Shown here: in pieces, positions 229 to 27,900 of the stretch
Numbering within the stretch: the stretch's first letter is position 1
Layout: every line of letters begins with the position of its first letter
Source of the DNA: an uncultured Pseudomonadales bacterium
GTDB taxonomy: Bacteria > Patescibacteriota > Microgenomatia > UBA1400 > PJMF01
Reading direction: 5' to 3'
Assembly (NCBI GenBank): GCA_964556485.1
Contig: CAZKVV010000001.1
Coordinates: 84,551 to 148,550, forward strand
DNA: 64,000 nucleotides
Made by a program: the position numbers and the translations under genes
Notes under the pieces: model-generated
What the model was told of the DNA's origin: nothing
The model's database searches: none
What the model saw: only the letters and a program-made list of their open reading frames with translations

Positions 229-246
229 TAGTGTACGATTACTATC

Positions 247-1596: not shown

Positions 1597-1598
1597 CT

Positions 1599-2201: not shown

Positions 2202-2357
2202 TCGTTGTGTTATTTTTAAAAGGTGCTATCATACTCTTGTAATGGCGAAAGTCAAAGCAGCTAATTCAACCGCATTTTTCATATTGAGATCTGGCGGTTT
2301 TTTTTGTGAAGACCGCAAGTAGAACTATGTTCCAATGTGGAACTGAAGGGAGGTACT

Positions 2358-2714: not shown

Positions 2715-2772
2715 CAGCTTAGTAATTGCTAAATTCATACCTAATCCTGTATTGTGGTCGTAAGGAGTTACT

Positions 2773-3249: not shown

Positions 3250-3261
3250 CAAGGGATACGT

Positions 3262-3834: not shown

Positions 3835-3981
3835 GGACATACGATATACTCCCACTATGTATATGAATTTATTATTTTCCATCTGTTGTTTCAAAGGTAG
3901 CTAACATTTGAGGATGTCGAAGTATACTAGCCGTCCTCAAGGGGGGGGCGGTTTTTTTATGGTTAACGTTAGAAAGTTGTG

Positions 3982-4726: not shown

Positions 4727-4755
4727 AATAGGGATGTTCCCGAGGAAAGGATTAA

Positions 4756-6174: not shown

Positions 6175-6227
6175 AAATGGGCAGTTTTACTTCATGCCCA
6201 AGGAAGTTGTTTCTATCTTACATTTGC

Positions 6228-6689
6228 TTAGTTGCCAAAGCCCGACATCTCGCAGCGGGTTGGAATTTTATCATTGAGTCCGTACAGTTTAGCAGCACCA
6301 GACTCAAAGAAATTATCCCATTTGGCATTGTAGTTGCCACAACGGCGGTTAAATTCGCCGCGGGCAACTGTCATTTGCCTGTTCCATTGAGACCAGGCGG
6401 TTCGATCTGCTGAAGACCATTGCAATTGATCTTCATAGCCCGCATTGCGGGCTTCAATGGCAGCCATCTCTGCCTCATAACTTTTGAGGTTGACGACCAA
6501 AGCGGACAGTTGGTTATACTGCTCCGTAAGGTCTGTTACTTGCGCCTGTGCTTCTTTTGCAGTTAGGACGTTTGCGGGGATGTTCGCCCAACCAAGTCCA
6601 ACTGCAATAAGCCTGATAAATATTGACACTGCAAGCAGAAGTAGGGTGCTTGTTACCACGTACACCCACAAGGGATATTTTTGTTTCAT
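6228..6689 (-). CDS. LemA-family protein (diverged)
   Basis: N-terminal TM helix. The C-terminal half NRQMTVARGEFNRRCGNYNAKWDNFFESGAAKLYGL matches the LemA pattern NRI.VARGDY..YN..I.TFP..AGMFGF. Confidence 0.5.
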   Translation of the reverse strand: MKQKYPLWVYVVTSTLLLLAVSIFIRLIAVGLGWANIPANVLTAKEAQAQVTDLTEQYNQLSALVVNLKSYEAEMAAIEARNAGYEDQLQWSSADRTAWSQWNRQMTVARGEFNRRCGNYNAKWDNFFESGAAKLYGLNDKIPTRCEMSGFGN

Positions 6690-6722
6690 TGAACCGCCTC
6701 CAAAAACGGTGTTTTTTTAGGG

Positions 6723-7391
6723 TTAATCTTCAGTTGATGTTCCCTCGGAATTGTCGAGATTGTTGAAAGTCATGCCCAGTCTTTCTTCAACGGCTGAGCA
6801 TTCAATTTGGTTAAGGTTGCTATCAACGCAACCACCATTAGCAATGATTGCCTTGGCGGTTTCGATTTTGGCAACTTGACCTTCGTCAACCAGGACTACT
6901 GGATTGGCATACGCCCGCGGCGCAGTGGTTACGCGAACATTCGCATACACCGACCACTGCTCATAATTTCCCTCTGGGGTGATGCAGAACAAAAAGGGCA
7001 CTGCATCACCGTAGGTGGCATCGATGCCCATCACTTCTTCGGTGTATGCGTTTACACCGTCGACATCAATTTTCCAAAATCCCGTGTAAGCGGGATCAGC
7101 AAAATTGGGCTCGATTGATTCTGTGGATGAGACAGGTCTACCCTGACACATCCAGCTATCAATCAGCCGCCCATCATCTGCCAATTGATATGCCCAAAAG
7201 AACATATCGTCTCGATTGGAGATATGATCCGCTATCAGAATTTGAGTCCTTTCGCGGAGCGCGTCCTGATCGGAATCAGGTGCTGGTGCAGCCTCTTGCG
7301 CATTTTCCATGCGCTCAGTGGTGGTGCCACATGCTGTTACTGCTAACAGCATTACTGCTAACAAAAAAAGTACTAATGTGGTTTTTTTCAC
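6723..7391 (-). CDS. hypothetical lipoprotein (222 aa)
   Basis: Signal peptide with lipobox LLAVTAC; no family recognised. Sits immediately upstream of (co-oriented with) the LemA-like gene. Confidence 0.55.
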   Translation of the reverse strand: MKKTTLVLFLLAVMLLAVTACGTTTERMENAQEAAPAPDSDQDALRERTQILIADHISNRDDMFFWAYQLADDGRLIDSWMCQGRPVSSTESIEPNFADPAYTGFWKIDVDGVNAYTEEVMGIDATYGDAVPFLFCITPEGNYEQWSVYANVRVTTAPRAYANPVVLVDEGQVAKIETAKAIIANGGCVDSNLNQIECSAVEERLGMTFNNLDNSEGTSTED

Positions 7392-7593
7392 TCGACCTTC
7401 TCCTTGAATTTGAAAAGAAAAGATAGAAACATGTTAAATAGCTCGCGTTCACACATCAAAAAAAAACAAGATTTGTGGACGTGAATGGAGAATTATACAT
7501 GAACGATACTAATAAGTCTATTATGGGACTAAATTAGGTGTATTTGTTGCTAAAATCAAGTAGTTTTGTCATACTTACTTAGAAGGGCTTCGT

Positions 7594-7785
7594 GTGTCAG
7601 CAAAAAAACTCTATATATCCAATAAAGATAAAGTCTTTTTAGGTGTTGCGGCCGCTTTGGCGCGTTATTTTAATGTTGATGTTACCTTGATGCGCATTAT
7701 TTGGGTGCTTTTACTACTTCCTGGGGGACTGCCGGGTATTGTGCCCTACATTGTCTGTTGGTTACTCATCCCTGAAAAAGAATAA
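7594..7785 (+). CDS. PspC-domain small membrane protein
   Basis: GTG start. KLYISNKDKVFLGVAAALARYFNVDVTLMRIIWVLL...IVPYIVCWLLIP matches the PspC domain pattern (LYRS..D..I.GVC.GLA.YF..D..LVR..FVL). Confidence 0.65.
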   Translation: MSAKKLYISNKDKVFLGVAAALARYFNVDVTLMRIIWVLLLLPGGLPGIVPYIVCWLLIPEKE

Positions 7786-7850
7786 AAAGCAAACTGCTGC
7801 ATCACCATTGTGTAAGCTATCGTACATTGACAATTAGTCTATAATGACGT

Positions 7851-8228
7851 ATGGCAAGAAAACCGGCAGTAGCGCAACACATCTGTGCAATTTTAGCTCA
7901 AAAGCATCTTTTGAGTGCTACCGGCATTGTACAAGAGTTGTCTGAACAGTTTAAGCAATACAATAAAACGAGTGTGTATCGTGCTCTCGAATCGTTATTA
8001 GCAGATGGCATTGTATGCAGGCAGCTATTGGCAGGTTCGGAGGTGCTCTATGAGTTGCGAGAACACCATCATGACCACACTGTGTGCACTAGTTGCCAAA
8101 CAGTGAATGCTATTGAATGTCAATCTCACCCAGCTCCTGTAGTGCAAGGATTTGCGGTTGACCATCACCATACAACCATGTATGGAGTGTGTGATGCGTG
8201 TCGAAATAATGTCTCAAAGAATAGCTGA
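7851..8228 (+). CDS. Fur-family metalloregulator (Fur/Zur/PerR)
   Basis: HHHDHTVCTSCQ ... HHHTTMYGVCDACR: the Fur-family HHDH-x2-C-x2-C and C-x2-C metal-site architecture. Ends in TGA. Confidence 0.8.
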   Translation: MARKPAVAQHICAILAQKHLLSATGIVQELSEQFKQYNKTSVYRALESLLADGIVCRQLLAGSEVLYELREHHHDHTVCTSCQTVNAIECQSHPAPVVQGFAVDHHHTTMYGVCDACRNNVSKNS

Positions 8229-9273
8229 TCCTCAACCTAAACTGTGGATGCTGGCAGTGTTTGCACTCTGTGCGGGAGTTGTGGTAATCACTAAAGGTGT
8301 AGACATGGAGTGGAATCGTGTTTTTAATAGATCTGATTCGTCGTTTGGCAAAGCTCAGTCTTCGCCCATAGTACTGCAAGAAACAGAAGTTGTGGAAGAT
8401 GCTCAAGTTGCAACTCAGTCTGCTCAACCAGTTTCAATAGAGCCCGGTGGCACTCTGCTTTTTGCAGGTGATATGCAGTGGGATAGATACATTAGGCAAA
8501 TGGCTACAAAAGAAGGATATGACTTTATTTTGTCTCCAGTGCGCAGTGTACTGCTTTCAGCAGATGCGGTAATTGCAAATCTGGAAGGGCCAGTGACGAC
8601 CTTTCCTTCAAAAAGCCTCACGGCAGACATTGGTAGCCATGACAACTATATTTTTACTTTTAGTCCAGAAGTGCTGCCCGTTTTGTATGACCACAACATT
8701 AGGGTGGTGAATCTGGGAAACAATCATATTTTGAATTTTGGTGCAGAAGGTCTTGCTCAAACCGAACAAAACTTGCAAGCAGCAGGGATTGCATACTTTG
8801 GAAATACCTCAAAAGAAACTTGGCTGGCAGATTCATTTTTAGAGTATGACTTGAATGGTTTGCAGGTATTATTGGTCAATTACAACCAATTTCTTGCGAG
8901 TGATATGGCTGTTTTGCTTGAGGAAATTCAGCAAAAAAATACTCAGTATGATGCGGTAGTGCTTTATACCCACTGGGGGAATGAGTACCTTACCGAAGCA
9001 AGCGCTTTGTATCAAGAACGGGCACATGCGTTTGTTGATGTGGGCGTTGATTTGATTATTGGTTCGCATCCGCATGTTATTCAGCAAAAAGAAGAATACC
9101 GGGGCAAAACGATTTATTACTCACTGGGAAATTTTGTGTTTGATCAGTATTTTGATCCCGAGTCTCGTAAGGGTTGGTTGGTTGAAGTTGCCTTTGATGC
9201 AGATGGTGAATATACAAGCAAGGAAATTCCGACATATCTAGAAAAAAATGGTCAGACCGTGTTGGTAGAGTAG
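8209..9273 (+). CDS. CapA/PGA_cap-family metallophosphatase-like capsule synthesis protein
   Basis: N-terminal membrane anchor followed by motifs GNNHILNFG, HWGNEY, IIGSHPHVIQ and YSLGNFVFDQ typical of the CapA family. ATG at 8209 overlaps the fur-like gene by 20 nt; ATG 8251 is an alternative start. Confidence 0.8.
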   Translation: MSQRIADPQPKLWMLAVFALCAGVVVITKGVDMEWNRVFNRSDSSFGKAQSSPIVLQETEVVEDAQVATQSAQPVSIEPGGTLLFAGDMQWDRYIRQMATKEGYDFILSPVRSVLLSADAVIANLEGPVTTFPSKSLTADIGSHDNYIFTFSPEVLPVLYDHNIRVVNLGNNHILNFGAEGLAQTEQNLQAAGIAYFGNTSKETWLADSFLEYDLNGLQVLLVNYNQFLASDMAVLLEEIQQKNTQYDAVVLYTHWGNEYLTEASALYQERAHAFVDVGVDLIIGSHPHVIQQKEEYRGKTIYYSLGNFVFDQYFDPESRKGWLVEVAFDADGEYTSKEIPTYLEKNGQTVLVE

Positions 9274-9374
9274 GGGGTTGCGCCTAGAGTATCGCCCTTC
9301 ATGGTTTTAGTCTCCATACGTCTTATAGTATTTACAAGTCTTATAATATATGTTATAATTAGTCGTTGTGGTTT

Positions 9375-9790
9375 TTACTGCAACTGCACATTTAAACTGG
9401 CTGATCGCAAGAGAGGCCAAGTGTGGAACATCAAAAAAACATCAAATGGTATTTTTCTACCTCGTTGGTGACCATGCTTGGCCCCTCTTAAGTGCGGAGA
9501 GGTGTGTCACTCGCCCCGACATGGGTGAGAAACAATTGCTCAGGTGCCTTGTAAAGTGCAAGGTCGACCGCCACGCACGAATATCGTGAATTGGATTATT
9601 CACATCTGTTTTACAAAATACAGATGCCATTGGGGTGGTATGTAGCACCACTGAATAATTCAAAAGCCAAGTAAGCTACGAAGGAAAGAAGTTACCAAGT
9701 GGGTCTGAATTGGTTTACACTAATACTGCAAACCAATTCGAGAATCCCATACTCATGGTAAAAAAGAACTTTTTAAAGTCCACTTCGTCA
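9375..9790 (+). ncRNA. rnpB: candidate RNase P RNA (bacterial type A-like, divergent)
   Basis: No plausible ORF. A -35/-10 promoter-like TTACAA-16-TATAAT lies at about 9331-9358. Matches to M1 RNA conserved regions, in the correct order: GAGAGGCCAAGUGUGGAAC vs GGGAGGAAAGUCCGGGCUC (CR-I/P4 5'); CAGGUGCC..GUAAAGUGCAAGG..ACCGCC vs AGGGUGCC..GGUAACG..GUGCAAC..ACCGCC; a P12-like hairpin CATCTGT/ACAGATG; GGGGUGGUAUGUAGCACCAC vs GGGUGCGGUAAGAGCGCACC; AAGCCAAGUAAG vs AAGGCCAAAUAGG; GAGAAUCCCAUACUCAUGG vs ACAGAACCCGGCUUAUCGG (P4 3'). The P4 strands covary (GUGUGGAA pairs with UCCCAUAC). Ends are approximate. Confidence 0.45.
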
Positions 9791-9972
9791 TGATTGATCT
9801 CCAAATATTCGGGGAACAGTCAAGAGACGATGAAGGACAAAAAATTGTTTTTCAAATTTCCCTGCCCCAAGTGAGGCGCCCCATGGACTACGAGATTCCT
9901 TTAAAAAAGGAACCGAGTCAAAATAAAAGGTTGGGCAATCACTTCACAAAAAAATAGAATGTGCACATATAA

Positions 9973-9999
9973 GCCCGGGTAAACCCCGGGCTTTTGCTT
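9973..9999. terminator. intrinsic terminator hairpin (GCCCGGG-TAAAC-CCCGGGC) with T-tract on the + strand; potentially bidirectional
   Basis: Perfect 7-bp GC stem followed by TTTTGCTTTG on the + strand. Lies 12 nt beyond the 3' end of the minus-strand photolyase gene. Confidence 0.6.
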
Positions 10000-12036: not shown

Positions 12037-12082
12037 GATATGACTTCCGCATGAGTGGTATTTGTTGTATTATCATACCCAT

Positions 12083-13984
12083 ATGATGCAAGAAACTGTT
12101 GGTTCTAATTATTGTAATAAATGTGGCGATCCTATTACTGGAAGCTTCTGTTCTGCATGTGGTTCCAAAGTAGTGAGGCAGAAGATGCGTGAAGGAGTCG
12201 CAACACGTGAAAAACAAGTTGCCCCAATTTTTATTGGCTCCATGGCTGTTAACACGACAGATAATCAAATTATTTTTCATGACGCTGCGGGAGTAGAGTC
12301 TCACAGATGTAGTTTTAATGATTTTGCACAATTAAGTACCAATAAATCGATTGATAGTATATTGGCAAACCCAACGGTGAATGATCGTATTGTAGTAACT
12401 ATTTCTCAACAAATCGATGGAGTACAAATCAAAACAACACTAGATGTGCCTCAAGCACACTATTTGGGAGCAAGAGGAATAGTCGATTATTTTAATCCTA
12501 AGGTTGATACAGCCGAGCTCGCTGCAAACGTTGCAAATTATGAACAATTGCGAAAAAAAAGAGAAAGAGTTGATGGTGGCTTACTTACGTATTCACCAAA
12601 GACGGAAGATGGCACAAAATTTTCGAGAGCAGAAACGAAACTTGCAGATGGCAGTGATTTTCCCGTCTACGTTCCTGCTGAACTATTAAACATATTAGAT
12701 GGCGCATTATGTGTTTTTTTAACTACAGCTTCTAATCTTACCCAGGATTCTGATACCTTTAACCTAGCAGGCCACACTATAAATAAAGCACAACTACTTA
12801 GCACTTTATCTGGCAATGGACAATTCTATCCATTTAGAAGAGAGCTTATTAATCCTAGATTAAGTTTGAATGATGTCAAAACACATCAAGCATATTTGCC
12901 AGTAAATGACATTAATAATAAACCCATTATTATTTCCATCGATCAAACGATTCTAGTTGAGTTATTTGCAAAGTATGAAAAGCAAATAGATCAACCTGCA
13001 GTGAGAATGTCAGTTGAAAATACTCTGAAGAGAGAGAAGCATGTTGTTACAAAATCTGAACATAAAGTTAACGTTGGTATAGCAAAAGGTTTGGTGAGAA
13101 AAGGTAGTTATGTGCGTGAAGGTCAAAGATTTAGCGAATCGATAGATGTCCAAGCTGGGACAACAATAGGTGATAGATTTTTAGATGCAAATCAAGAAAG
13201 AGCAGCAAATCAGGACATGCTCGTTGCTCGAACAGTCGAGATGGCAGATGGTACGATTGTTACTATCCTCAGAGTGTATGACGGGATGGGAGGACATGGA
13301 CACGGTGAGCAAGCATCTAAAACAGCAGCAGCAAACGAAATTAATTTTCTTACCACTCTCACTGAGAAGCAAATTAAGGCTATAAAAGATCGAGCTCAAA
13401 AAAAGAACAGATCGTATGAAGTTGAGTTAGCAGATGTAATGCTCAAATACATTGCAAAGACAACCGTTAGCCAAATTCCTGCTGAGGCAGGCACAACTAT
13501 GTCGGGAAGCTTGATTATCAATGGCAAATGCATTGTAACGAGCAAAGGTGATTCGAAGACATACGTATTTAGGGGTGGAAAACCTGTATTACGGACAATT
13601 GATCATAGTTTGGTTGCGAGGTTAGTAGCTACAAAACAAATTACTCCGGATGAAGCAGTGCATCATCCGCAAAAGAATGTGATTTATAAAACAGCACTAG
13701 ATGAAGGAAGGGATGGAAATGTCGTCGCAACACACCCAATGCAGGAATTTCCTTTTGAAATCGCAGAAATTGTTCTCGAGGAAGGTGATGTGATCATATC
13801 AATGTGTGATGGAGTTGCTGGAGGTATTGAGACTCAGGGAAGAGATATTGAACAAGAGTTGCAAGCAATGATCGCGGCAAAATCTCAAGACGCAGCGCTG
13901 TATGCACTAAATGTCTTAGCCGAAGGTAGTGGTGACAACGATACCTTTTTGATGGCAACATACCACACATCGAATGTGACGTAA
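12083..13984 (+). CDS. zinc-ribbon domain protein with C-terminal PP2C-family Ser/Thr phosphatase domain
   Basis: N-terminal CNKCGDPITGSFCSACG (CxxC-x9-CxxC). The C-terminal ~260 aa carry PP2C motifs: VYDGMGGHGHGEQAS (DGxGG), GDSKTYVFRGGKPVLRTIDHS, ISMCDGV and GDNDTFLMATY (DN.T). The middle ~300 aa are unassigned. Confidence 0.7.
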   Translation: MMQETVGSNYCNKCGDPITGSFCSACGSKVVRQKMREGVATREKQVAPIFIGSMAVNTTDNQIIFHDAAGVESHRCSFNDFAQLSTNKSIDSILANPTVNDRIVVTISQQIDGVQIKTTLDVPQAHYLGARGIVDYFNPKVDTAELAANVANYEQLRKKRERVDGGLLTYSPKTEDGTKFSRAETKLADGSDFPVYVPAELLNILDGALCVFLTTASNLTQDSDTFNLAGHTINKAQLLSTLSGNGQFYPFRRELINPRLSLNDVKTHQAYLPVNDINNKPIIISIDQTILVELFAKYEKQIDQPAVRMSVENTLKREKHVVTKSEHKVNVGIAKGLVRKGSYVREGQRFSESIDVQAGTTIGDRFLDANQERAANQDMLVARTVEMADGTIVTILRVYDGMGGHGHGEQASKTAAANEINFLTTLTEKQIKAIKDRAQKKNRSYEVELADVMLKYIAKTTVSQIPAEAGTTMSGSLIINGKCIVTSKGDSKTYVFRGGKPVLRTIDHSLVARLVATKQITPDEAVHHPQKNVIYKTALDEGRDGNVVATHPMQEFPFEIAEIVLEEGDVIISMCDGVAGGIETQGRDIEQELQAMIAAKSQDAALYALNVLAEGSGDNDTFLMATYHTSNVT

Positions 13985-14004
13985 ATTGTGTATGAAAAGT
14001 AAAT

Positions 14005-15531
14005 ATGTCCACACAAACCACTGAATGGCAACCAATTACTTTTTTTGATACTACAGACTCAGATCAACATCAAGAACCTGCCTCAGAGCAAGAAGAATAT
14101 ATATCTCCTGGATATCCAGAACAAGAAGTACTCATTCTTGAGGGAAGCACAGCTCTTCTGGAAATAACCAATGCTTGTTTGGCAGATTGTCCTTGGTGTT
14201 ACAAAAGTCATAGCAATGATGTGAAAAACAGCGTGACTCGTCACAAAGGTCACGTTGAGCTAAATGACCTAAAACGTAGAATTGAGTGGATAGACTCATT
14301 CTCTTCTGCAACAGAAATTTGTCTTTTGGGTGGAGAACCACTGTTACATCCTCATTTGCAAGAATTGTTTGATTTTTTGTTAGAGCGAGGTATCCAACCA
14401 CAAATTATCACAGCAGCAGTGGTTGGGGATTCCGAGATTGGAAAGAAGAATACCGACATTTTGTTTGATTACTGGTTGCGTGGATTAGTAAATGTAGAGC
14501 TGAGTTATCAGCCACAAAAAAATCAAGCAGAATTTACAGCTCTGTACACCCGAATGAGAGAAGCTTTGCCTGGCAGAAACGATGTAATTCGTGGCGAAAT
14601 AAGGAAAATTGAAGATGTAATTAGATCAGATGATTCCCAGCTTTCAGAAGAAGAAAAGAAGGCACTTACAGCCAAAAATTCAGCGCTCCTTGCTCAACTA
14701 CCTAATGGAGTAGGTAAGTATCAAAAATATTTTTTACAATCGGTTGCCACGTTTCCTCGACATATTATTACTAATCCAGAGCTTTGGGCAAAGGAGTTTA
14801 CCCAGTTGATGCGTGTGGCAGTAAACGTTGATATGACAAGTACAGCTGAAACTATGAGTTATGAGGGAAAAGATTGGATAATGGTTGATTCTATAGAAGA
14901 ATTTCGCCAATTATTTTTGCGGGTAATTAATTCTGAGCCAAATCCTGATGGGTCAGCAATATCCTTTGATGATTATTTCCCAAACGATGGGTCTTTGCCA
15001 AACTCATCACTACGTATCTGGAGTGAGCAGCAAATTTATCCCCGTTTTATCAAGGATGATACTTCCCCAAGTGGTAAACACCATGTGGCAAATATGGTAG
15101 TTCAGAGACCAGGTTCAGCGAAATATGCACAAGTATGTTCGTACATGAAAGTGAAGCCAAAAGGCACAAAGGCGTTGAGTATAACTAGCTTGCTAGTGAG
15201 AACTGACGGTGAGTGTACGTTTACAGAACCAGAGTGTATTGCAGCAAAAGAAGGGTTTACAAATGTTGACTTGCATCAAACACCAGAGGAAATATATGCG
15301 GTTACACTTGAACATGCTCGATTGCTGCGTTTCTTAAACTATGAAATTAAAAGAAAGCGTGCCGAAGCAATTGGTGTAGGAGCTGAGGGATACTGCAAGT
15401 TTGATCCGCTCATAAAAAGTGGCGAAATAAAAGTTGGTAACCTGCCTTGCCACGGCTGCGGTATTGAAGGTTCGGTGGGTAACTTGTGTCAAATGTGCAG
15501 CGCTATACGAAGAGTAATGGTACCTCAGTAA
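14005..15531 (+). CDS. radical SAM domain protein (QueE/NrdG-like single-cluster core) with a Cys-rich C-terminal region, 508 aa
   Basis: CLADCPWCY (Cx3Cx2C) at residues ~58-66 and ICLLGGEPLLHP (the GGEP SAM-binding motif). C-terminal CHGCGIEGSVGNLCQMCS cysteine cluster. 20 nt downstream of the PP2C gene. Confidence 0.65.
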   Translation: MSTQTTEWQPITFFDTTDSDQHQEPASEQEEYISPGYPEQEVLILEGSTALLEITNACLADCPWCYKSHSNDVKNSVTRHKGHVELNDLKRRIEWIDSFSSATEICLLGGEPLLHPHLQELFDFLLERGIQPQIITAAVVGDSEIGKKNTDILFDYWLRGLVNVELSYQPQKNQAEFTALYTRMREALPGRNDVIRGEIRKIEDVIRSDDSQLSEEEKKALTAKNSALLAQLPNGVGKYQKYFLQSVATFPRHIITNPELWAKEFTQLMRVAVNVDMTSTAETMSYEGKDWIMVDSIEEFRQLFLRVINSEPNPDGSAISFDDYFPNDGSLPNSSLRIWSEQQIYPRFIKDDTSPSGKHHVANMVVQRPGSAKYAQVCSYMKVKPKGTKALSITSLLVRTDGECTFTEPECIAAKEGFTNVDLHQTPEEIYAVTLEHARLLRFLNYEIKRKRAEAIGVGAEGYCKFDPLIKSGEIKVGNLPCHGCGIEGSVGNLCQMCSAIRRVMVPQ

Positions 15532-16698: not shown

Positions 16699-17043
16699 AT
16701 GAGTTTTTCATACTTTGGGAAAAAGAAGGAAAAAATGACTGAACAACCTCCAGTAGACACAACGAATCCCGAACGGCCAGCACCGGGGACACCAGAATAT
16801 GCCTTACTAATGTTCGACGAGGGTGAGGATAGAGATTTTGTTAGAACCTTGTCTACTGAGTTTGAAGAGATTTCTCAGGAAGAAGTGGAACAACGGGTTG
16901 TTGCTTTGCAGCAATTGGCCGAACAACACTTCGAAGCAGTTCGCTCAGAGGCATTAAAAGTTAACGAAGCAGGTAGTAAAATGCTCAGTGGCACCGTGAG
17001 TGTCATTTTGGAGATCCAAAGCATTGGGCAGAGCACAGCGTAG
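16699..17043 (+). CDS. hypothetical acidic protein (114 aa)
   Basis: ORF in the same orientation, 51 nt after ychF. No family recognised. Confidence 0.4.
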   Translation: MSFSYFGKKKEKMTEQPPVDTTNPERPAPGTPEYALLMFDEGEDRDFVRTLSTEFEEISQEEVEQRVVALQQLAEQHFEAVRSEALKVNEAGSKMLSGTVSVILEIQSIGQSTA

Positions 17044-17051
17044 TGCAAGAG

Positions 17052-17534
17052 ATGACGTATGAACAACTGCGTGCATTTGCGACAGAAAATCTGGATACAG
17101 CTTTTTGGACAAGTAGATCTAAAACTTCGCAAAGGCCAAATGAGTGGTCAGATATTCCCGAAGATGAATCCGCAGCCGAGCCGTCTGCCCTTGATAAAGT
17201 TCACTCATTAGCAACTATGGGTGAAATTATTTTTTCACCCTTTACTGGTGAATATGCGGTACTTGTTCCCAGAGTGAATGTAGATGCAGCTAGACTTGAA
17301 CGATTTTCGAAGTTGTTGCAAGCTGTAGCAATTAGCGAGTATGATCGCGGACAAAATGGACATCCAGCTTTTTTTGACAGCTATTTAGAAGAGTTTGTTT
17401 CTTTTGAAGTACGGATTGTTAGAATTAAAACTGAATCCCAGGCGGAAGCTCCTATTTCAGCAGTTGTACATAATACATTACTTGGAAAAGCTAGAGCATG
17501 GGTTGAGAAACAGAGAAATCGATTTAGCAAGTAA
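17052..17534 (+). CDS. hypothetical protein (about 160 aa)
   Basis: ORF abutting the previous one (GTG 17043 overlaps its stop; first ATG at 17052). No family recognised. Confidence 0.45.
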   Translation: MTYEQLRAFATENLDTAFWTSRSKTSQRPNEWSDIPEDESAAEPSALDKVHSLATMGEIIFSPFTGEYAVLVPRVNVDAARLERFSKLLQAVAISEYDRGQNGHPAFFDSYLEEFVSFEVRIVRIKTESQAEAPISAVVHNTLLGKARAWVEKQRNRFSK

Positions 17535-17559
17535 TACGTGTAATTAATAGAAAGTTACT

Positions 17560-18891
17560 ATGAATGGCGATTACAATCAAAGATTTCCATATCGAGATGA
17601 ATCTCAAGGAGGTAAAGTGGAAGTCAGCTCGCCATCTGAGCTCAAAACGCTCTTACATCGGTACTTTGATTTGGATGAATTGAGAGGGCTGTGTTTTGAT
17701 TTTGGAATTGCTTTGACTGAACCACAATATCGCGCTTTAAATGCATTGAATCGAAGCGATCTTGCAGATTATATGGTTAGAGCACTAGAACAATCTGGAA
17801 ATCTGCAACGTTTGCAGGATGCCATTGTAACCCTGCGACCTTTTTTATCTGATGTACAAAAGACAAGTGAGTTGCCATATGCACTTGTTGATAAAAAGTT
17901 ATTACTTCTTAAAAGCGTACTTAATGATAAATTTAATAAAAGCGAGCTTCAGAACCTTTGTTTTGATTTGAACATAGGTTATGAGTCTCTATCAGGTGAA
18001 AGTACATTTGCAAAAATACAGCATCTTATAATCATATGTAACACTACTAATCGCATTGATGAGTTAGTTGACGCAATAGTAGCAGAACGCTCAGAAACTG
18101 GTTTGAAAGAAATCGAAGCACCAGCTCAACCTCAAACCGAAAAGTCTGTTGAAGTTTTAAAACTTCCAAACAGTGTTCTTATCCGTGACTTTTTGATGCA
18201 ATTTTCACTAAAAGAGCTGACAATACTGATGTATTTTTCTGATCTGCCAGTCGGCACGAAAAGTAAACCAAGTATGTGTCTAGAAATTGCTCAATATCTT
18301 CCTAGACATGGTATAGATGAGTATGCGAAATTTTTGCAGGCTTTACACACGTACAAACCAGAGCAGGACTTGGTTGCAGCACAATTACTAACATCGTACG
18401 ATTTACTACCAACTGCTGAAAATAAGAAAATTGCAATTTTCAACACTTTAGTGCAGAAGATTACTACCAAGGTGGCGCTTGACGACGTATGTTTAGATAT
18501 ATTTAAAGTAAAACTTGCTGCAGATCTGTATAGTTACGACAGAAAGTCACCAAATATAGATCTTGGTATAGTACAACTTATGGAATATGTTGTAAGGCAA
18601 GCATATTGCTCTGACATAAATGAATTACCAGCTATTGCTGATGCAGCACTCAATCGGCCTCAAGCTGCAAAAGAATTAAATCAGTTAACAACGCGTCGCG
18701 ATTTTGTTAGTTATGTTAGAGTGCACGCAGTATCGAGCGAAGATTTTAAGAATGTTTGTCTTGCTTTTGATTTAGATCATGAAGATTTAGAAGGTGCAGA
18801 TCCTTATGAAAAAGCACTGTATTTAGTTCAAAAATTGTACTCTCATGGAATGATCTCAACATTTACTCAAAAGATGTCTCAGCTAGTCTAG
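17560..18891 (+). CDS. protein composed of five tandem effector-associated (EAD1-like, Death-like) helical repeats
   Basis: Five repeats of ~80-90 aa, each with the pattern [L/I]xx[L/F]L...F...EL..LCFDL.I.YE.L.G...........L......L.EL...[IL]...RP. Repeat 1 is SELKTLLHRYFDLDELRGLCFDFGIALTE...NLQRLQDAIVTLRP. Repeat 2 is KKLLLLKSVLNDKFNKSELQNLCFDLNIGYESL...RIDELVDAIVAER. Repeats 3-5 are more degenerate (FSLKELTILMYFSDLPVG; VALDDVCLDIFKVKLAADL; SSEDFKNVCLAFDLDHEDLEG). No other domain. Confidence 0.6.
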   Translation: MNGDYNQRFPYRDESQGGKVEVSSPSELKTLLHRYFDLDELRGLCFDFGIALTEPQYRALNALNRSDLADYMVRALEQSGNLQRLQDAIVTLRPFLSDVQKTSELPYALVDKKLLLLKSVLNDKFNKSELQNLCFDLNIGYESLSGESTFAKIQHLIIICNTTNRIDELVDAIVAERSETGLKEIEAPAQPQTEKSVEVLKLPNSVLIRDFLMQFSLKELTILMYFSDLPVGTKSKPSMCLEIAQYLPRHGIDEYAKFLQALHTYKPEQDLVAAQLLTSYDLLPTAENKKIAIFNTLVQKITTKVALDDVCLDIFKVKLAADLYSYDRKSPNIDLGIVQLMEYVVRQAYCSDINELPAIADAALNRPQAAKELNQLTTRRDFVSYVRVHAVSSEDFKNVCLAFDLDHEDLEGADPYEKALYLVQKLYSHGMISTFTQKMSQLV

Positions 18892-20767
18892 CCGCATGCA
18901 AAGCTAACACCTCCCGAGGATCTTCAAGCAGTAATAATGCTAAACAAAACTCCATATGTCGTCTGGTAGTGAAGTCTTCTGATTTTTCATGAGTACTATG
19001 AAAATATGTTTCTGTTGCTGCAAAATATTTTTTTGCTTGCTGAAGAGCTTCTTCTTCAGTTGTGACAGCACCCTCATCCTGATCTAATAGGACACATTTT
19101 GCAATCACACCAATCCATTCACCACCTTTTTTGTTAAGGCTTTTTAATAGCTCTTTATTTGAGAGCAATGGTTTAGCAACTTTTGTTGCAATGTCATATT
19201 CAGCAGTTTTTTGACTAAACCAACGTTTCATTTTCACTAAATCTTGCAAATCATCTTCTTCAAGTGGTGTATTTTCATTACCATTTCTTCCTCGATAATC
19301 TGCTTCGGTTACCAACATTAAAAAATTAAGTGGCAAACCTGCTTCGGTTGCGAGTTTCCGCGCCATTTTTCGCAGTGTGGTGGCACTATCAAATGATGTG
19401 GCCGTGCTACTTGGTTCTCTTGGAAATTCTTGTTTAAACACACCTCCTAACTGCATGTGTTTTGGCACCAGAGCTTCAACTTGCATTTTGGTAGCATTAT
19501 CAATTTTTAATCGATTCAGGAAACGTCTAGTTGGTTCAAGTCCTGCTGCTTCATGTCCAAATGCGCGGTAGTAGCCATCTTTCAATTCAGTAGTGGCGGG
19601 TTTTCCTAGATCGTGACAGAGCATCGTCAACATGAGCACTAGTCGGCGGTCATCAGATAGATTTTCACGCTCGGCAATGAGTGCGGCAGCATCGAGGGTT
19701 TGTAGCGTATGCACCCAGGCATCACCTTCGGGATGAAAGAGTTGATGCTGAGGCGTGCCAATCAAGGCAAAAAATTCAAGCCAGTATTTTTCAATAAAAC
19801 CAATTTCTCTTGCAAATTCTAGACCAACAGATGGTCTGTTACTTTTAAGCAGCATCTTGAGCAACTCATCTCTGACACGTTCAGCTGCAAGTGTATCCAA
19901 TAAACCATCTGCAACCATTTTGGTACAAAGAGCAACGGTCTCTGGAGTAGGCTGCATCTCAAATCGAGCAGTAAACTGCATAATGCGAAGAACTCTGAGT
20001 GGGTCTTCAATAAATGTTTCATTGTCTGTTATGCTTATTTGCTTGCTTTGAAGATCAAGTTTTCCTAAAAATGGGTCATAGAGACTCTTGAGCAGCGGAT
20101 CATAGGAAAGGGCATTCATTTTCAGATCACGACGGCGGCTTGCTACTTTATAATTCATTGAAGGATTAGTAACAGTTTTGAAATCTTTGTGACCAGGCCC
20201 AGTTGAAACATCTGTACGGGTCACTGATACATCAAGTGGTTCAGCAAACCCATCAATGTAGACTTTTATAACACCGAACGACTTACTCACACTATCGATT
20301 TTGCTCTTCGGAAAGGTTTTTGTAAGCACTGCCTGCACTGTTGGCACATCAAGACCATACACTTCAATGTCAAAATCTTTGGGTTTTGGTGTTGTGCCGG
20401 TGAAGTCAGAAAGTACGACGTCGCGAATTATGCCGCCAACGAGCAAAGCACGACCACCAACAGTTTGCACGTTCTTACACAGGTGTAGTACCTCGTCAGG
20501 GATTGTAAATCCAAGTTCTCGTTCTTCTACGTTTGTTTGGGCATCAATGTTTGGAGTAAGGTAGCTCGCGTTGACCCCAGTCAGTTCACTAATAACGAAA
20601 AGAGTAGGGAGTGCAAGGGACGGATCAACGGTGATTAGTTTTTCTTCTTCAGGCAGCGTTACCCCAAAATGCTCCTGCATTATTTTGGAGGTTTCTTGCC
20701 AGCTTTGAATGGTTTCATTTTTCATGTTTAAGCCCATAAGTATACAGGGAGAAGGTGCTTTTGTCAA
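18863..20767 (-). CDS. cca: CCA-adding tRNA nucleotidyltransferase (class II, HD domain) with a ~190-aa C-terminal extension
   Basis: LVGGIIRDVVL (GGxxRD), DFDIEV, RRDLKMNAL (RRD.T.NA) and the HD motif CHDLGK. The 3' end overlaps the convergent EAD gene by 29 nt. Met11 or Met15 may be the true start. Confidence 0.8.
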   Translation of the reverse strand: MTKAPSPCILMGLNMKNETIQSWQETSKIMQEHFGVTLPEEEKLITVDPSLALPTLFVISELTGVNASYLTPNIDAQTNVEERELGFTIPDEVLHLCKNVQTVGGRALLVGGIIRDVVLSDFTGTTPKPKDFDIEVYGLDVPTVQAVLTKTFPKSKIDSVSKSFGVIKVYIDGFAEPLDVSVTRTDVSTGPGHKDFKTVTNPSMNYKVASRRRDLKMNALSYDPLLKSLYDPFLGKLDLQSKQISITDNETFIEDPLRVLRIMQFTARFEMQPTPETVALCTKMVADGLLDTLAAERVRDELLKMLLKSNRPSVGLEFAREIGFIEKYWLEFFALIGTPQHQLFHPEGDAWVHTLQTLDAAALIAERENLSDDRRLVLMLTMLCHDLGKPATTELKDGYYRAFGHEAAGLEPTRRFLNRLKIDNATKMQVEALVPKHMQLGGVFKQEFPREPSSTATSFDSATTLRKMARKLATEAGLPLNFLMLVTEADYRGRNGNENTPLEEDDLQDLVKMKRWFSQKTAEYDIATKVAKPLLSNKELLKSLNKKGGEWIGVIAKCVLLDQDEGAVTTEEEALQQAKKYFAATETYFHSTHEKSEDFTTRRHMEFCLALLLLEDPREVLALHAARLAETSFE

Positions 20768-22146: not shown

Positions 22147-24894
22147 CTATATATTTTCTTCTAAAAACGGAGAGTCTAAATACCCACCAGTGTTTCCGTT
22201 GTAATTACTCCAGAACAATCGAGTTTTCTTGAAAGTGTTGACTTCAGCTTGCACAGCCTGCACTTCTTGCCATGTTTGTGGTTGTCGCTGCTGCATAAAG
22301 TAGTCATTAAGTGCTTGAGAAATATGATCTTGCACCTGTGTAGATAACCTGATGGGAAATCCGCCCTGGATAATTCTTAGTTTTGTATCTGGTTGTGTAA
22401 GCAGAATGTCGGTGACACAGTCCATAACCATTGGTACCAGAACGCTGACCACTTTCATATGCTCACCATCTTCAATATTAAATGCACCAGTGCTAATTGA
22501 GCCATCGATGGCATCAATTTTTTGAATTTCGTTAGTTGTAGTAGTGAATTCAGATAGTAAAACTTTTGCTGCGATAGGTCGAGTAATTTCGACAAGAAGC
22601 GAAATAGTTTGACCATGCTTGCCAGCCTCGATGTTTGCTACTAATTCTGCAGTATTTGGTTTTTGCACCTTACTGTTTGTCAGTCCGGAAATAGTCTCAG
22701 TACTTTCTGATTCTGGGATGAGCGCTAGCAATGGCTCAACTTCTGTTGCAAAGTGTTTGCGTAACAATTCTTTATAGCTCGCATCAAGCTGATTCCAATG
22801 TCCACTCATTTCACTGCCGTACTTTTGTGTGAGTTCAGAAATCAGGTGAGAGGCGAGAGTGGGGTTGGTTGGTTTGAGTTCAGCTGCATAAAAAATAAGT
22901 GAAGGCAGGAGCGAGTCGTAACTTTGTCCGGTGTGACTTTGGACGTATGCCTCAGAAGTTAGGATCTGCAGCAGTGTTTCGACAAGTGCTGTTTGTTGTT
23001 GTTGGTTTTTTGTGGCAATTGTTTCTGAAATTGCACGCCCAACCAGTTTGGTGTCGATGGTTCTTGCCAGTGATTTGAGTCGATATCTGTTGAATTTATA
23101 GTCTTCCATGAATGGTTTTATTTCTTCAGGAAGTCGTACATCTACCAGTCCGTAGGTAAGGTCATTTTTGTCCCAGATATGAGCTACAGCTGTTTTATTT
23201 TGAGAAATAACAGAGAGAATAGTGATTTTTTGTTCAAGCGGTAGTGAAGTGAGTGTTTTTTCATTGACCATTGCCAATACTGCCAGCAGCCGCTCAGCAT
23301 CATTGGTTTTACAGTATTCAGTAATCCATTTCTTGGCGTGTTCTGCCTTGCGTTCAATGACTGCCGGTGGTTCGGACAGGGCAGTTCGCTGTAGCAATAA
23401 TGTTCTATTTTCTTCGACAGATTCCGTAAAAAGTGGCTCATAAAAAAGCAAATCTTCTTCGGTAAGACCCACCGTCGTTAGCGTGCCTTCATTAGTGTTG
23501 GAGGTGGGCAGGGTAAAGATGCATTTGCGGGTTCCAAGTTCATACCTAGTGTTACTTGGCTCAACTTGCATAAGAGTGAACTGTTCCGTGCCCAACGCTG
23601 CAGCAATCTGCGATGCCTTTTTTTCAAAATGAGAATTTGAGTGTCTAGGATAGTCAAAAAAATGTTGCAAACTTTGCCACAAAGCATCGGCAGGGATGTC
23701 ACTGCCAGCTGTTTGGGGAGATGCGACTAGGGCATCATGAGAACCAAACGAACTTTGTTTGCTGTAGTGGTAGCCTTTGCCAAATTGCGCCTCCGCAAGC
23801 GCAAATCGATCTGCAAGCAGCGCTAAAAGTGGCGAATCGTTGGTACCTGGATTAGTATTTTGTTGAAAGATTTTGAACTGAGCACCGATGGTTTCTTGGG
23901 TATTTTGAGGATTTTTTTGGTCGTCTATGAGCAGCAAAATATCGGATTTGCCTTTACTATTTGCCAGTGCCCGTGCGCCTTTTTCTTGGTTTAATCCACG
24001 AATATCAAAGTAGGTGAGTGTTATGCCAGCCATTGTCGTAACTTGACGATATGTTTCTGGATTGGTGAGTCTCTCAACGAGTGGAGCTCGTGATTCTTTT
24101 TCTTTTTGTGCGCCAGCTATCAGTACTTCACTGTATGTAGCTTTTATTTCCTCGGTTGTGGCTCCGTGCACAATTTTTTCTAGAGCTGTAACTGCTTCAA
24201 TGAGAAGCTGCGCCTGATTTTGTGGGGTATTTTCCTTGAATTTTTCTTTGAGTCCATAAAAAAGTGGCACAATCAAATCAAGGTCAATGACATCGCTTTT
24301 CAGTTTACGAATAGAACCTCTTTTGTTAGTGTCGAACCCTTCCTGCGCTTGGAGCCAATAATCTAAATCTTTTAATTGAAGAGTGTCGGGGAGATTTTTT
24401 TGAAAGTGAGTAGAGCCATAACGAGCCTTGAGTTCCGTTGCTGCAGGCTCACCGTTACTGCCATTAGCGAAGTTTCCCAGTGTTTTTTTTTGACTTACTT
24501 TTGCGTCATTTTCGTCAGGTGAATGTCCAAAGCCTTCAATAACTAATGTGGAAGGGTTTGAAAAGTAGGAGCTGCTGTCTTCATTTTCTTCATGAATGTT
24601 GGGTGTAAAGAGCACGTGTGCATTTGCAGAAATAAGTCCTCCTTTTAGTGCAAAGTAGTAGGCAAATAGTTGATCGATGTCAAAATCTTGAAAACTGTGG
24701 CCCATGACTACTTGAGTGAATACCTGCTTTTTTTCTCGGGATGCAGCTTCACCAATAAAAACAGTAGTGAGGATATCTGGTAGTAGAGTTGCTAACTGTT
24801 TAGCTTCCGCTTGTTCCAATTCAGCAATTTCTGCTAAATTTTGAGCAACAGTTTTGAAATGTTTTTGAGTATCTTGTATTTCAGTCTCCGACAT
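22147..24894 (-). CDS. large hypothetical protein (915 aa)
   Basis: Uninterrupted 2.7-kb ORF. No family recognised. Divergently oriented to the 1890-aa helicase gene with a 61-nt intergenic region. Confidence 0.6.
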   Translation of the reverse strand: MSETEIQDTQKHFKTVAQNLAEIAELEQAEAKQLATLLPDILTTVFIGEAASREKKQVFTQVVMGHSFQDFDIDQLFAYYFALKGGLISANAHVLFTPNIHEENEDSSSYFSNPSTLVIEGFGHSPDENDAKVSQKKTLGNFANGSNGEPAATELKARYGSTHFQKNLPDTLQLKDLDYWLQAQEGFDTNKRGSIRKLKSDVIDLDLIVPLFYGLKEKFKENTPQNQAQLLIEAVTALEKIVHGATTEEIKATYSEVLIAGAQKEKESRAPLVERLTNPETYRQVTTMAGITLTYFDIRGLNQEKGARALANSKGKSDILLLIDDQKNPQNTQETIGAQFKIFQQNTNPGTNDSPLLALLADRFALAEAQFGKGYHYSKQSSFGSHDALVASPQTAGSDIPADALWQSLQHFFDYPRHSNSHFEKKASQIAAALGTEQFTLMQVEPSNTRYELGTRKCIFTLPTSNTNEGTLTTVGLTEEDLLFYEPLFTESVEENRTLLLQRTALSEPPAVIERKAEHAKKWITEYCKTNDAERLLAVLAMVNEKTLTSLPLEQKITILSVISQNKTAVAHIWDKNDLTYGLVDVRLPEEIKPFMEDYKFNRYRLKSLARTIDTKLVGRAISETIATKNQQQQTALVETLLQILTSEAYVQSHTGQSYDSLLPSLIFYAAELKPTNPTLASHLISELTQKYGSEMSGHWNQLDASYKELLRKHFATEVEPLLALIPESESTETISGLTNSKVQKPNTAELVANIEAGKHGQTISLLVEITRPIAAKVLLSEFTTTTNEIQKIDAIDGSISTGAFNIEDGEHMKVVSVLVPMVMDCVTDILLTQPDTKLRIIQGGFPIRLSTQVQDHISQALNDYFMQQRQPQTWQEVQAVQAEVNTFKKTRLFWSNYNGNTGGYLDSPFLEENI

Positions 24895-24955
24895 AAGGGT
24901 TTTTTGTGCTTAAATTAATACTACCTGTATATTGGGTGTAAGTGAAGCTTAAAGC

Positions 24956-27900
24956 ATGCAACAAGAAGAAAGAGAAACAACTAAAAAACCTGAAAGCAAA
25001 CATGGTGGTCGGGAGCCCTATATCTGGAAAGACGGCGTTGCGCGTGTAGAGCGACCGATGGACATGTATTTGAAAGAAGTTTTAGACAAGCTATCTCAAA
25101 AACAGGTTGTTGTAGTTCAGGCCGAGACTGGAGTGGGCAAGACTTCCAGAATTCCTCAGGCAATCATGGATAGTCAGCCTAATACAAAAATCTACATGAC
25201 TCAGCCAAGACGGTATGCCGTACGGATGAACGCTGGATATATTGCCAGAGAGAAAAAACAACGCTTGGGACAGGATGTTGATTTTACCTTACGCGGTGTT
25301 CCTGGCGAGAATAGCCAAGATAAAAAAGCAAGTCGAGATGCAAAACTTGAGGTCATGATCGACGAAACATTGGTCAATAGAATCTTACGAGAAAAAAAGC
25401 TTCCCGATGGAGTGATTATTGTTGATGAAGCGCACGAGCGGTCGATAAATATTGATCTATTGTTGCTGCTTATTCGTACCTACTTGCCAAACTCTCCGAA
25501 TACAAAAATTCTGATTACCTCAGCAACTATTGATACCCAAAAGTTTAAAGGCTACTTTAAGTATTCTCCAGAAGAGTTGACGGCATATTCTGGCAAAGAG
25601 TCCGAACTCGATTTTGCTGCTGAACCAGTGATTGCCCTCAATGAGAAATTGTTCCGAGTCGAGACAGAAATGATCCACCTAAATTCTGGAGAGCACCATA
25701 CGACAAAGGCAATCGAAACGGCTGTGGAAGTCTTTAAGCAGTTTGTTGTTGGTAAAACAGAAGCTGGGTTAAAAGATCGTGTGCTAGCAGAAGAAGAAAG
25801 AATTTATAGAGAAAAGGGATTTATTAGCTTTTCCGTCCTACCAGTACCTCAACCATTAACCATTCCACCAGAACAAGAAGGTGATGCTCGCATTCCGGTC
25901 GCAGATGGAACTGTTTTGGTTTTCTTACCTGGTAAAGAAGAGATCGCAGAAGGTGTGAGGGTGTTAAAAGAGTATGCAAGAAAAATTGGGTGCTCTGAGT
26001 ATGTCGAGTGTCTCTCGATGTATAGAGGGGTAGATGATGCTGAGAGAAACGCAATTGAGGCCCCAATTGTTCCTGGCAAGTTGCGAGTTATTTTTACTAC
26101 TGAAATTCTTAAATCGTCAGTAACACCAACAAAAACAGTGGTGGTCATCGACTCATTTCAGGTTAAGCGCGATGTTGAAAATGAGCATGGTGTGTCAGTA
26201 CTTAGAAAAGTGTCACAGTCTGGTGCGGAGTCAGAGCAAGCAAAAGGTAGAGGCGGTAGAACAAATACAACGGTCTATAAACCAGTTGTTGGCGGAATTG
26301 ATGAAGTTTTATCAATGCAGGAAGAGTCAGGAGATTATTGGCCACAGCCTGCAATTTTGAGAGAAGGCATAATTTCGGTAACGCTAAAGATGGCTGCTGC
26401 TGGGTTGGATATAAAAACTGCCAAATTGCTTGACAGACCTAATCAGAAAAATGTTGATCGAGCAGTAATTCGTTTGCAACAAATCAATGCACTTGATGAT
26501 GAAGGCAGAATCACGTCGTTTGGCAGAGAGTTGCTGAGATTTTCGATTGCACCAGAGCAAGCCAAAGCGTTATTTGAGGGAGAAAAGCAAGGGGTATTAC
26601 CTGAAAGTATGATTGCGCTAGCTGTAGCCTCAGAGGAAGGCATATTCTCACTTCCTCCAAGAGGAATGAGAGAACTTATTTGTTCGGAGGTTGATCTGCA
26701 ATCTGGGTTAGAGAGATATCTGGCAACAAAGTGGTTGAGGGAGATTCACTATAGTTTTTCTGGAATTGCTCAAGACAGCGGAGAGTTGCAAGAAAAATTC
26801 CAAGCTATTCAGCGAGAAAAGTGGGGAGAAGTTCGACTTGCGTTTAAAGATTCTTATCTGAACTCAGCGCGTTATCCCGTTTATATTAATACTTTGGAAG
26901 CCAAGAATCTTTGGCAACATGTGGAGCAGACGCGCATCTATGATGGTAGGCAAATGATTGATGGATTGTTACTTGATTATGTAAGAGAACTGGTTTTTGA
27001 CAAGCTGAGTTCAAGTTCGATTACCATTCCAACTACTCAAGAATCATTGCACGCTGACCTGATGAAAATCAAAGCTACTATAAATGTCAAACTTACCCAG
27101 TTTGGTGGTGCACCACTGGAAATGCGTTTTAATCCAACTGTCTTGAGCGAGCTAACGTTTCCTTTAGGGTACGGCATTGTTCGTTCGGAGGTGATAAAAC
27201 AAGCTCTGCAATTTAGGGTAGAAAATGAAGATGATATCTTACTTGACGTATTTAATATTCGCTATGATCAAGGATTCTTTAGAGTAAAATCATCTGAGAA
27301 CGATTCATCCATTCCAAATGATTTTTTTAGCACAATTTTGTGTCCCGATTGTAAAGTCAGGAACCGTGATAGCGATCTCGATGAGCATGATTATCGAAAA
27401 CAAATATATGAAAAGAGATGGTTGCAATTTGCACTTGATCAAGATGGTCAGCAAACAAACTCCGATTTTGTTGCATCTGTAAATGCATTTCGAGCCTACA
27501 AACAGGCAAAAAGACAGATGTCCGACAATCAACTTTGGCTTTGGTGCCAGGCAAATGGGCTCAACCTCAAAAAAATGCAGCAAGTTGATACTAGATTAAG
27601 TTATTTGATTGACGAGGTTGAAAAAAGTAGGTTATCACTTTCCGAAAATGTTTCCAGTCGACGTGCATTTTCTTCAGATGCACTTACTAAAGCGATGTTA
27701 GCTGGATTGGCTGCCAATGTTTGTTTTGGTCAATCAGGTCCGGTGGCTCCATTAATCAGTGCATCTAAAGAATCAGCGCTCAATGGTAAGGCTCCTTACT
27801 ATATATTTGGTGGCATCAGAAAATCAGAAATTAAGCCCAGAAAGTTAGAGCATCATCTTCATTTTGCCAGCCTTTGTGCGCCAATAAAGCTGGAGTGGTT

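Follow-up and report, generated by a model that had tools for sequence, protein, structure and literature searches.

The window analyzed here, by which we mean the whole 64-kb stretch of DNA, encodes a protein of 443 residues that appears to consist of five tandem modules derived from EAD7, one of the effector-associated domains (EADs), and of nothing else. The data are best explained by a soluble, cytoplasmic protein without an enzymatic part, in which five Death-fold modules of the EAD7 family are carried on short flexible linkers. The array belongs to a known adaptor class, of which it is a divergent and very rare variant with five modules, and it occurs in an unexpected lineage. The original prediction for this DNA, which had presented the gene as a candidate for a previously undescribed signaling or conflict module, was in this respect overstated.

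The open reading frame (ORF) is present exactly as had been described. Its codon usage scores 0.238 log-odds per codon, compared with 0.269 ± 0.08 for the confident genes of the window, and the five other reading frames all score negative. Because its codon usage is that of the confident genes, we regard the gene as real and native; a recent horizontal arrival is ruled out on the same grounds. NCBI-derived data contain a protein (P0001) identical to the window product, encoded on a contig of 214,034 bp. No enzymatic or catalytic domain was detected in the 443 residues by Pfam, NCBIfam or PADLOC, as had been predicted; NCBIfam gave zero matches and PADLOC only meaningless weak ones, such as DrmMI at 0.0025. 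The protein has neither a transmembrane segment nor a signal peptide, and its maximal Kyte-Doolittle hydropathy over 19 residues is 1.1. At its 3′ end the gene overlaps by 29 nucleotides (18863-18891) the convergent gene for a CCA-adding enzyme/HD protein (18863..20767, reverse strand), which leaves no intergenic space for terminators.

When the whole protein is searched, the Pfam profile for EAD7 (PF19960) is matched in three stretches, with a score of 82.4 bits (cut-off 32; E = 1.9e-23). The repeats had been labeled EAD1/Death-like, and a profile search of the whole protein and of each repeat had been proposed as a check. This search did find a match to the Death-like class, and the repeats do belong to the effector-associated adaptors described by the Aravind group, but the family is EAD7. 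The EAD1 profile (PF19955) has no match at E ≤ 1 with the whole protein or at E ≤ 10 with any module, and the EAD1 label is thereby ruled out.

The five modules differ in how readily they are recognized (Table 1). Tested singly, modules 3 and 4 have no Pfam match, and their relationship to the other modules is undetectable in pairwise Smith-Waterman comparisons within the protein. Evaluated against shuffled sequences, the same comparisons show that modules 1 and 2 (z = 11.4) and modules 2 and 5 (z = 7.4) are clearly related. Self-BLAST of the protein detects no internal repeats at all, so that profile methods were needed. With hhalign, an alignment of three sequences for each module was compared with an EAD7 reference of 364 repeats, from which the family of the window protein had been excluded. 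Module 3 obtained a score of 41.9, compared with 9.4 ± 2.1 after shuffling of alignment columns, and module 4 a score of 23.7, compared with 9.7 ± 2.4; the highest shuffled score was 15. Further, the equivalent of module 3 in an ortholog (P0005, described below) directly matches our own EAD7 profile with a value of 6.6e-8. Profile comparison with shuffle controls thus bears out the five tandem adaptor repeats that had been proposed, and a composition of five EAD7-derived modules is supported at the level of sequence comparison. Module 4 is the weakest assignment, and its EAD7-like identity is probable rather than firm.

The family to which this protein belongs is very small. A word-indexed search of 5.8 billion clusters recovered only the array protein itself and P0002, a protein of 451 residues with 36-38% identity, encoded on a 1.8-kb Logan contig. 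When 1.84 billion representatives were searched exhaustively with HMMER, one further full-length relative appeared, P0005 (435 residues, 25% identity); the 1,062 proteins that this search returned at E ≤ 0.001 are EAD7 proteins in general. No further members were found in two metagenome scans or in a scan of viral contigs, and the family comprises three members (P0001, P0002 and P0005) among about 15 billion proteins. These three align from end to end with the five modules in the same order. Within the arrays of the family the modules are about 21% identical to one another, and modules score better against their orthologs than against their paralogs, which together rule out a recent tandem duplication. 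The retention of the five-module order, with orthologous similarity exceeding paralogous similarity, implies that the array is old and that each module has been separately constrained. Module 4 is the best conserved of the five between P0001 and P0002, with 39 of 75 residues identical (KITTKV..DDVCLDIF).

Table 1. Coordinates, in window positions, of the array gene, its modules and the two small ORFs upstream of it.
Feature	Position	Strand	Remarks
Five-module EAD7 array gene, 443 aa	17560..18891 (stop 18889-18891)	+	ATG start; ORF list, Pfam, codon usage
Module 1, aa 28-94	17641..17841	+	EAD7 with central-loop insertion; Pfam alone 3e-6, own profile 1e-13, hhalign 98.7%
Module 2, aa 116-180	17905..18099	+	Canonical EAD7; Pfam alone 4e-14, 52.5 bits; hhalign 99.6%
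Module 3, aa 203-268	18166..18363	+	Diverged EAD7; Pfam alone none; hhalign 96.2%
Module 4, aa 290-366	18427..18657	+	Most diverged, probably EAD7-like, with insertion; hhalign 63%, P 7e-5
Module 5, aa 378-443	18691..18888	+	EAD7; Pfam alone 0.0096, own profile 7e-8, hhalign 97.2%
ORF-A, small acidic ORF	16699..17043	+	pI (isoelectric point) 4.2; codon usage 0.27-0.29, gene-like
ORF-B, 160 aa	17052..17534	+	Called gene P0159; codon usage ~0.25 (0.254); pI 5.45

In structure models the array protein is all-helical, with four main helices in each module and linkers of low confidence between the modules. A first full-length AlphaFold2 model, computed from an alignment of two sequences, had a pLDDT (predicted local distance difference test) of 56 and was too weak for fold searching. 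In the module model, DSSP assigns long helices to residues 8-25, 28-37, 50-63 and 67-77, and two helical turns of three residues (42-44 and 83-85) to the places where helices 3 and 6 of a Death fold would lie. As modeled, then, the module fold appears compact or abbreviated relative to the six-helix topology. It forms a compact helical bundle that can be superposed on domains of the Death-like superfamily (DD, DED, CARD, PYD, bDLD), the fold being shown for module 2, and it has the small, non-catalytic, all-alpha character of EAD7, with a length of about 60 residues. Foldseek gave no significant E-value, though the best TM-scores (template modeling scores) were obtained with CARDs. Identity with two solved bacterial Death-fold domains, the CARD of a protease from a gasdermin system (9frr_A) and the Azospirillum death-like domain (8ss1_A), is 11-16%; unlike the window array, these domains are N-terminal tags of proteases. 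A sequence search of PDB with the EAD7 profile found no significant match to a solved structure, and the viral structure models in BFVD likewise gave none. The alternative of a TPR/HEAT-type solenoid, which had been raised in the original prediction, is rejected on the evidence of Pfam and of the structure models. EAD7 has distant relatives in EAD1, EAD6 and Death-like domains (PMC7159879, PMC8195603); published HHpred comparisons, with which the Foldseek ranking is in agreement, link it to EAD6, EAD1, bDLD1, Pyrin and DED, with p = 4e-7 for the distant kinship of EAD1 and EAD7 (PMC8195603, supplementary file 1). In a separate observation, weak sub-threshold Pfam matches to PhetRS_B1, the B1 domain of the phenylalanyl-tRNA synthetase beta chain, recur over the first two helices of EAD7 repeats, both in the window protein and in P0008-P0036, and beta chains of this synthetase are among the top non-significant matches of the EAD7 profile in PDB.

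It is of interest to compare this protein with EAD7 as it has been described. The published domain, an adaptor of NTP-dependent conflict systems (PF19960; Kaur, Burroughs, Iyer and Aravind 2020, PMC7159879; Kaur et al. 2021, PMC8195603), shares with our modules the profile match and the small, all-helical, non-catalytic nature. It is reported as a single N- or C-terminal tag on TIR+FGS, TRADD-N, AP-GTPase and STAND proteins, and otherwise as single stand-alone genes beside such proteins, mostly in Chloroflexi (PMC8195603). The window protein differs from this in consisting solely of five copies, in lacking a tagged partner in its neighborhood, and in its apparent host in the Candidate Phyla Radiation (CPR), as discussed below. 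Tandem EAD7 arrays were not found in the searchable text and supplements of the two studies (PMC7159879, PMC8195603), a body of material that does not include the main source-data file of 2020, and the searchable supplements of PMC8195603 nowhere contain the string “EAD7+EAD7.”

Such arrays are nevertheless readily found in sequence collections, and the statement that no comparable stand-alone array was known does not hold. We surveyed the 147 representatives outside the window family that are among the best 150 HMMER matches, a set enriched for multi-repeat proteins because the query is itself multi-repeat. At least three EAD7 repeats are present in 59 of the 147, and 27 of these 59 are EAD7-only arrays of 3-7 repeats, defined as having no other region of 110 residues or more. 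Examples have four repeats (P0008, P0010, P0018, P0030), five (P0029, P0040), six (P0071) or seven (P0015), and several are complete genes on their own contigs. Other arrays are fused to additional domains, in the arrangements nSTAND1+EAD7x4-6 (P0003 and P0006, in which the four to six repeats are C-terminal), SIR2+nSTAND1+EAD7x7, NPHP3_N+CHAT+EAD7x4 and EAD7x3+nSTAND1+HEAT, and further with nSTAND1+HEAT/TPR or with an NBR1-type Ig domain. Tandem EAD7 arrays, free or fused to nSTAND1, SIR2 or CHAT, are thus a common architecture. The STAND NTPases and effectors with EAD7 arrays have the same repeated module as the window protein, together with the NTPase switch and/or an effector, both of which the window protein lacks. 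Some canonical arrays give weak secondary matches to EAD1, consistent with the published kinship of the two families.

Like the window protein, these unannotated metagenomic EAD7-only arrays have short linkers and diverged repeats. The median identity between repeats of one array is 31%, compared with 32% between repeats of different proteins, and this equality indicates that EAD7 arrays are ancient. At 21%, identity within the arrays of the window family lies below the 5th percentile of the surveyed arrays. A second difference is that all the repeats of the metagenomic arrays match Pfam EAD7 strongly, whereas two modules of the window family are invisible to Pfam. A third concerns the neighborhood. 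At the one array locus with long flanks (L018; Logan SRR33304591_8704, 1-9984) the neighboring genes bear EAD7, whereas the array of the window family stands alone. At L018, a giant RHS-like gene (SpvB/FG-GAP/DUF6443) ends in an EAD7 domain and is followed by five co-oriented genes with 3, 1, 1, 5 and 2 EAD7 repeats, a cluster in the position that immunity or cassette genes usually occupy in polymorphic-toxin loci. Two other array loci, L016 and L017, on contigs of 2-3 kb, have no EAD7 neighbor on record. The presence of EAD7 arrays on STAND, SIR2 and CHAT proteins and of EAD7 genes in clusters implies that in such contexts other EAD7 proteins are available as partners.

The host of the window most likely is a CPR/Patescibacteria bacterium resembling Pacebacteria, to judge from a single marker. 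The closest named relatives of its ribosomal protein S2 come from Candidatus Pacebacteria (75%, 66% and 61% identity), Woesebacteria (69%) and a “Patescibacteria group” (65%), all in the lineage Minisyncoccota; one S2 cluster at 77% identity bears the NCBI label “Pseudomonadales bacterium,” and its second label, from nr, starts with “Candidat...”. A CPR lineage is not listed for EADs in the searchable published texts and supplements, and the CPR entries in the searchable supplements of PMC8195603 concern SPRY proteins only. Among GTDB species genomes, 10 of the 11 with the closest EAD7 domains belong to Chloroflexota, and the loci recovered from the 11 all have a single EAD7.

In a published model (PMC7159879), homotypic contacts between EADs link effectors to core components (VMAP, iSTAND, STAND and GAP1), and EAD7 is counted with the EADs that “primarily recruit other effectors.” Under this principle, another copy of one EAD is fused to a core component or to an effector encoded in the same operon or elsewhere in the genome. 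In bacteria, CARD-like domains are experimentally required for defense signaling (PMC10312443). On these grounds, the reading that we tentatively prefer, while giving it slightly less than an even chance because no partner is visible, is that the window protein serves as an endogenous hub, a non-catalytic, multivalent adaptor that would bind EAD7-bearing proteins through like-with-like contacts. Such contacts between EAD7 domains would be of the kind proposed or known for EAD and Death-fold domains. Each of the five modules would probably have its own binding specificity, since the modules, strongly different from one another, are each conserved between orthologs; modules that are separately conserved and mutually diverged point to five specificities and not to one reiterated site. 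The hub may gather, bridge or nucleate several EAD7-tagged proteins of the same cell, for example sensors such as STAND NTPases and effectors such as proteases, TIR or SIR2 proteins, and these partners would most likely be encoded outside the window. The net effect could be activation or restraint, and sequence alone does not decide between them.

Several observations weigh against an endogenous hub. A search of all ORFs of at least 40 residues (hmmsearch --max) revealed no second EAD7 ORF in the window, nor is there a STAND NTPase, protease, TIR or other defense gene in it; the predicted absence of a partner STAND NTPase or EAD-tagged effector was thus confirmed by window-wide searches. The orthologs, too, are alone among housekeeping-type genes. 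Published work links EAD systems statistically to multicellular bacteria, among them actinobacteria, cyanobacteria and chloroflexi, and left CPR out of this statistic. The host lineage does not belong to the multicellular taxa from which EAD systems have been described, nor does it share the multicellular habit, although this habit is an association and not a strict criterion and the host is placed by one marker. CPR bacteria are also ultra-small and have small genomes. Finally, we found in the literature no experimental demonstration of homotypic EAD7 binding.

The absence of a partner from the window and the adaptor-only composition would also be compatible with a brake or decoy, which would cap or sequester EAD7-tagged proteins and so block their assembly. 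CARD-only, PYD-only and tandem-DED (FLIP) proteins act in this manner in animals and viruses. In bacteria, a phage CARD-only protein (pCARD) inhibits CARD-dependent gasdermin defense (PMC10312443). The window protein has no detectable sequence kinship to pCARD, to the tandem-DED FLIPs (MC159, vFLIP) or to the CARD-only and PYD-only proteins, and these Death-fold-only regulators have one or two modules where it has five; an inhibitory function is suggested by analogy only. The target may be the cell's own system, as a guard against autoimmunity, or, provided that the protein is delivered into a host, the immune or suicide systems by which that host depends on EAD7. The latter is conceivable because CPR bacteria live attached to host cells. 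It is in keeping with the inferred CPR lineage and with the abundance of EAD7 in other organisms, as judged from the predominance of Chloroflexota among the closest GTDB genomes. Against a brake or decoy, the array protein has no signal peptide or recognizable secretion signal, no secretion or injection genes lie beside its gene, and searches of viral contigs and of viral structure models turned up no relative, so that the family is without parasite precedent. We consider a brake or decoy unlikely. The most specific form of this idea, a five-headed EAD7 decoy of a CPR episymbiont in which each module would mimic a different EAD7 tag of the host's STAND-type immune or suicide systems and jam their assembly during parasitism, seems to us very unlikely; the concentration of EAD7 in filamentous Chloroflexota forms its context.

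Another possibility, which we likewise hold to be improbable, is that in this reduced genome EAD7-derived modules have been domesticated as a scaffold, that is, reused as generic binding modules for lineage-specific partners without EADs, such as ORF-A, ORF-B or other housekeeping proteins. A housekeeping context surrounds the gene in all three family members, and in the window its codon usage is native. Modules 3 and 4 are beyond Pfam detection and module 4, diverged as it is from EAD7, is the best conserved between P0001 and P0002, which suggests new, family-specific constraints. In addition, the array gene is closely spaced with the co-oriented ORF-A and ORF-B, with gaps of 8 nucleotides between the two ORFs and 25 between ORF-B and the array gene. 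However, modules 1, 2 and 5 remain canonical EAD7, no evidence ties the family to any housekeeping process, and the small ORFs do not behave as conserved partners. ORF-B has no homolog among the 5.8 billion clusters and is an ORFan. Both small ORFs are absent from beside the gene at the P0005 loci, and at the P0002 locus no ORF-B-like frame ends in the 85 nucleotides upstream of the array gene.

The weakest alternative, a detached sensor-like array that would serve as bait for a ligand or invader and report to an NTPase encoded elsewhere, draws on proteins such as P0003 and P0006, in which nSTAND1 is followed by EAD7 repeats where sensor repeats usually sit, but other proteins bear the array N-terminally or together with separate TPR/HEAT sensor repeats (P0021, P0007), so that an EAD7 array is not generally a sensor, and with no NTPase nearby this reading is highly improbable.

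The surroundings of the gene were compared across the family. At three loci the P0005 gene has a divergent upstream gene, for a 438-residue protein without a family match, and a convergent downstream gene. Upstream of the P0002 gene lie 85 nucleotides rich in AT, and downstream of it an unrelated gene in the same orientation. The ORFs of these loci have no match among those of the window beyond the array gene, save for one weak match between antisense ORFs that lie inside this gene. The original prediction had named the two small acidic ORFs or the adjacent PP2C/radical-SAM pair as possible partners. Both small ORFs do exist, with gene-like codon usage, and ORF-A is as acidic as was stated, although ORF-B is only mildly so. 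ORF-A has an alternative start at 16735, preceded by an AAGGA-type ribosome-binding site, and ORF-B probably starts at the ATG at 17052. Neither has a match in Pfam, NCBIfam or PDB, the collections with which ORF-A was compared. A partnership finds no support: the PP2C and radical-SAM genes, like the small ORFs, are not beside the orthologs, and in the window the housekeeping gene ychF separates this co-oriented pair from ORF-A, ORF-B and the array gene. With no synteny with the orthologs, an ORFan in ORF-B and ychF intervening, all four are rejected as conserved partners. The run PP2C, radical-SAM, ychF, ORF-A, ORF-B and array gene (gaps of 20, 33, 51, 8 and 25 nucleotides) may be co-transcribed.

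The remainder of the window is occupied by housekeeping genes, including those for RecR, CysS, YchF, the CCA-adding enzyme, RF, GlmS, HisS, DnaB, Lgt, SHMT, FolD, RpsB, QueA and Tgt, and a defense-island context is ruled out. Megablast of positions 12-22 kb against phage records returned nothing. The PP2C/radical-SAM pair occupies 12062-15531. The PP2C phosphatase has 640 residues, with an N-terminal double zinc ribbon and about 330 residues that are unassigned. The radical-SAM protein (508 residues) begins 20 nucleotides after the PP2C gene; only its CxxxCxxC core can be assigned, its C-terminus is rich in cysteine, its viperin-like matches are far below the cut-off and at 90% identity it remains a singleton. 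The stretch 22147-30628 encodes two very large proteins that are unassignable for the most part, the first (915 residues, reverse strand) without a family match and the second (1890 residues, forward strand) with only an N-terminal DEAD/HA2 helicase region assigned. Nearly all 2-kb bins of the window have a positive GC skew, regardless of gene strand, and the cumulative skew climbs steadily to 3.36, which suggests that a single replichore contains the whole window.

It has been proposed that EAD and Death-like adaptors wire the immune and programmed-death systems of bacteria, and they are regarded as evolutionary kin of the adaptors of animal apoptosis. Least is understood, within this wiring, about adaptor-only proteins with several domains, which may act as hubs, as brakes or as decoys, and the window protein, with five specialized modules and no enzyme, is an extreme example. 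Its interest lies chiefly in the CPR host and in the question of hub versus decoy. A decoy directed against host immunity would correspond, in a cellular parasite, to the viral FLIPs, the PYD-only proteins and the pCARD of phage, and a strategy known from viruses would thereby be extended to bacterial episymbionts. An endogenous hub would mean that even very small genomes keep Death-fold signaling.

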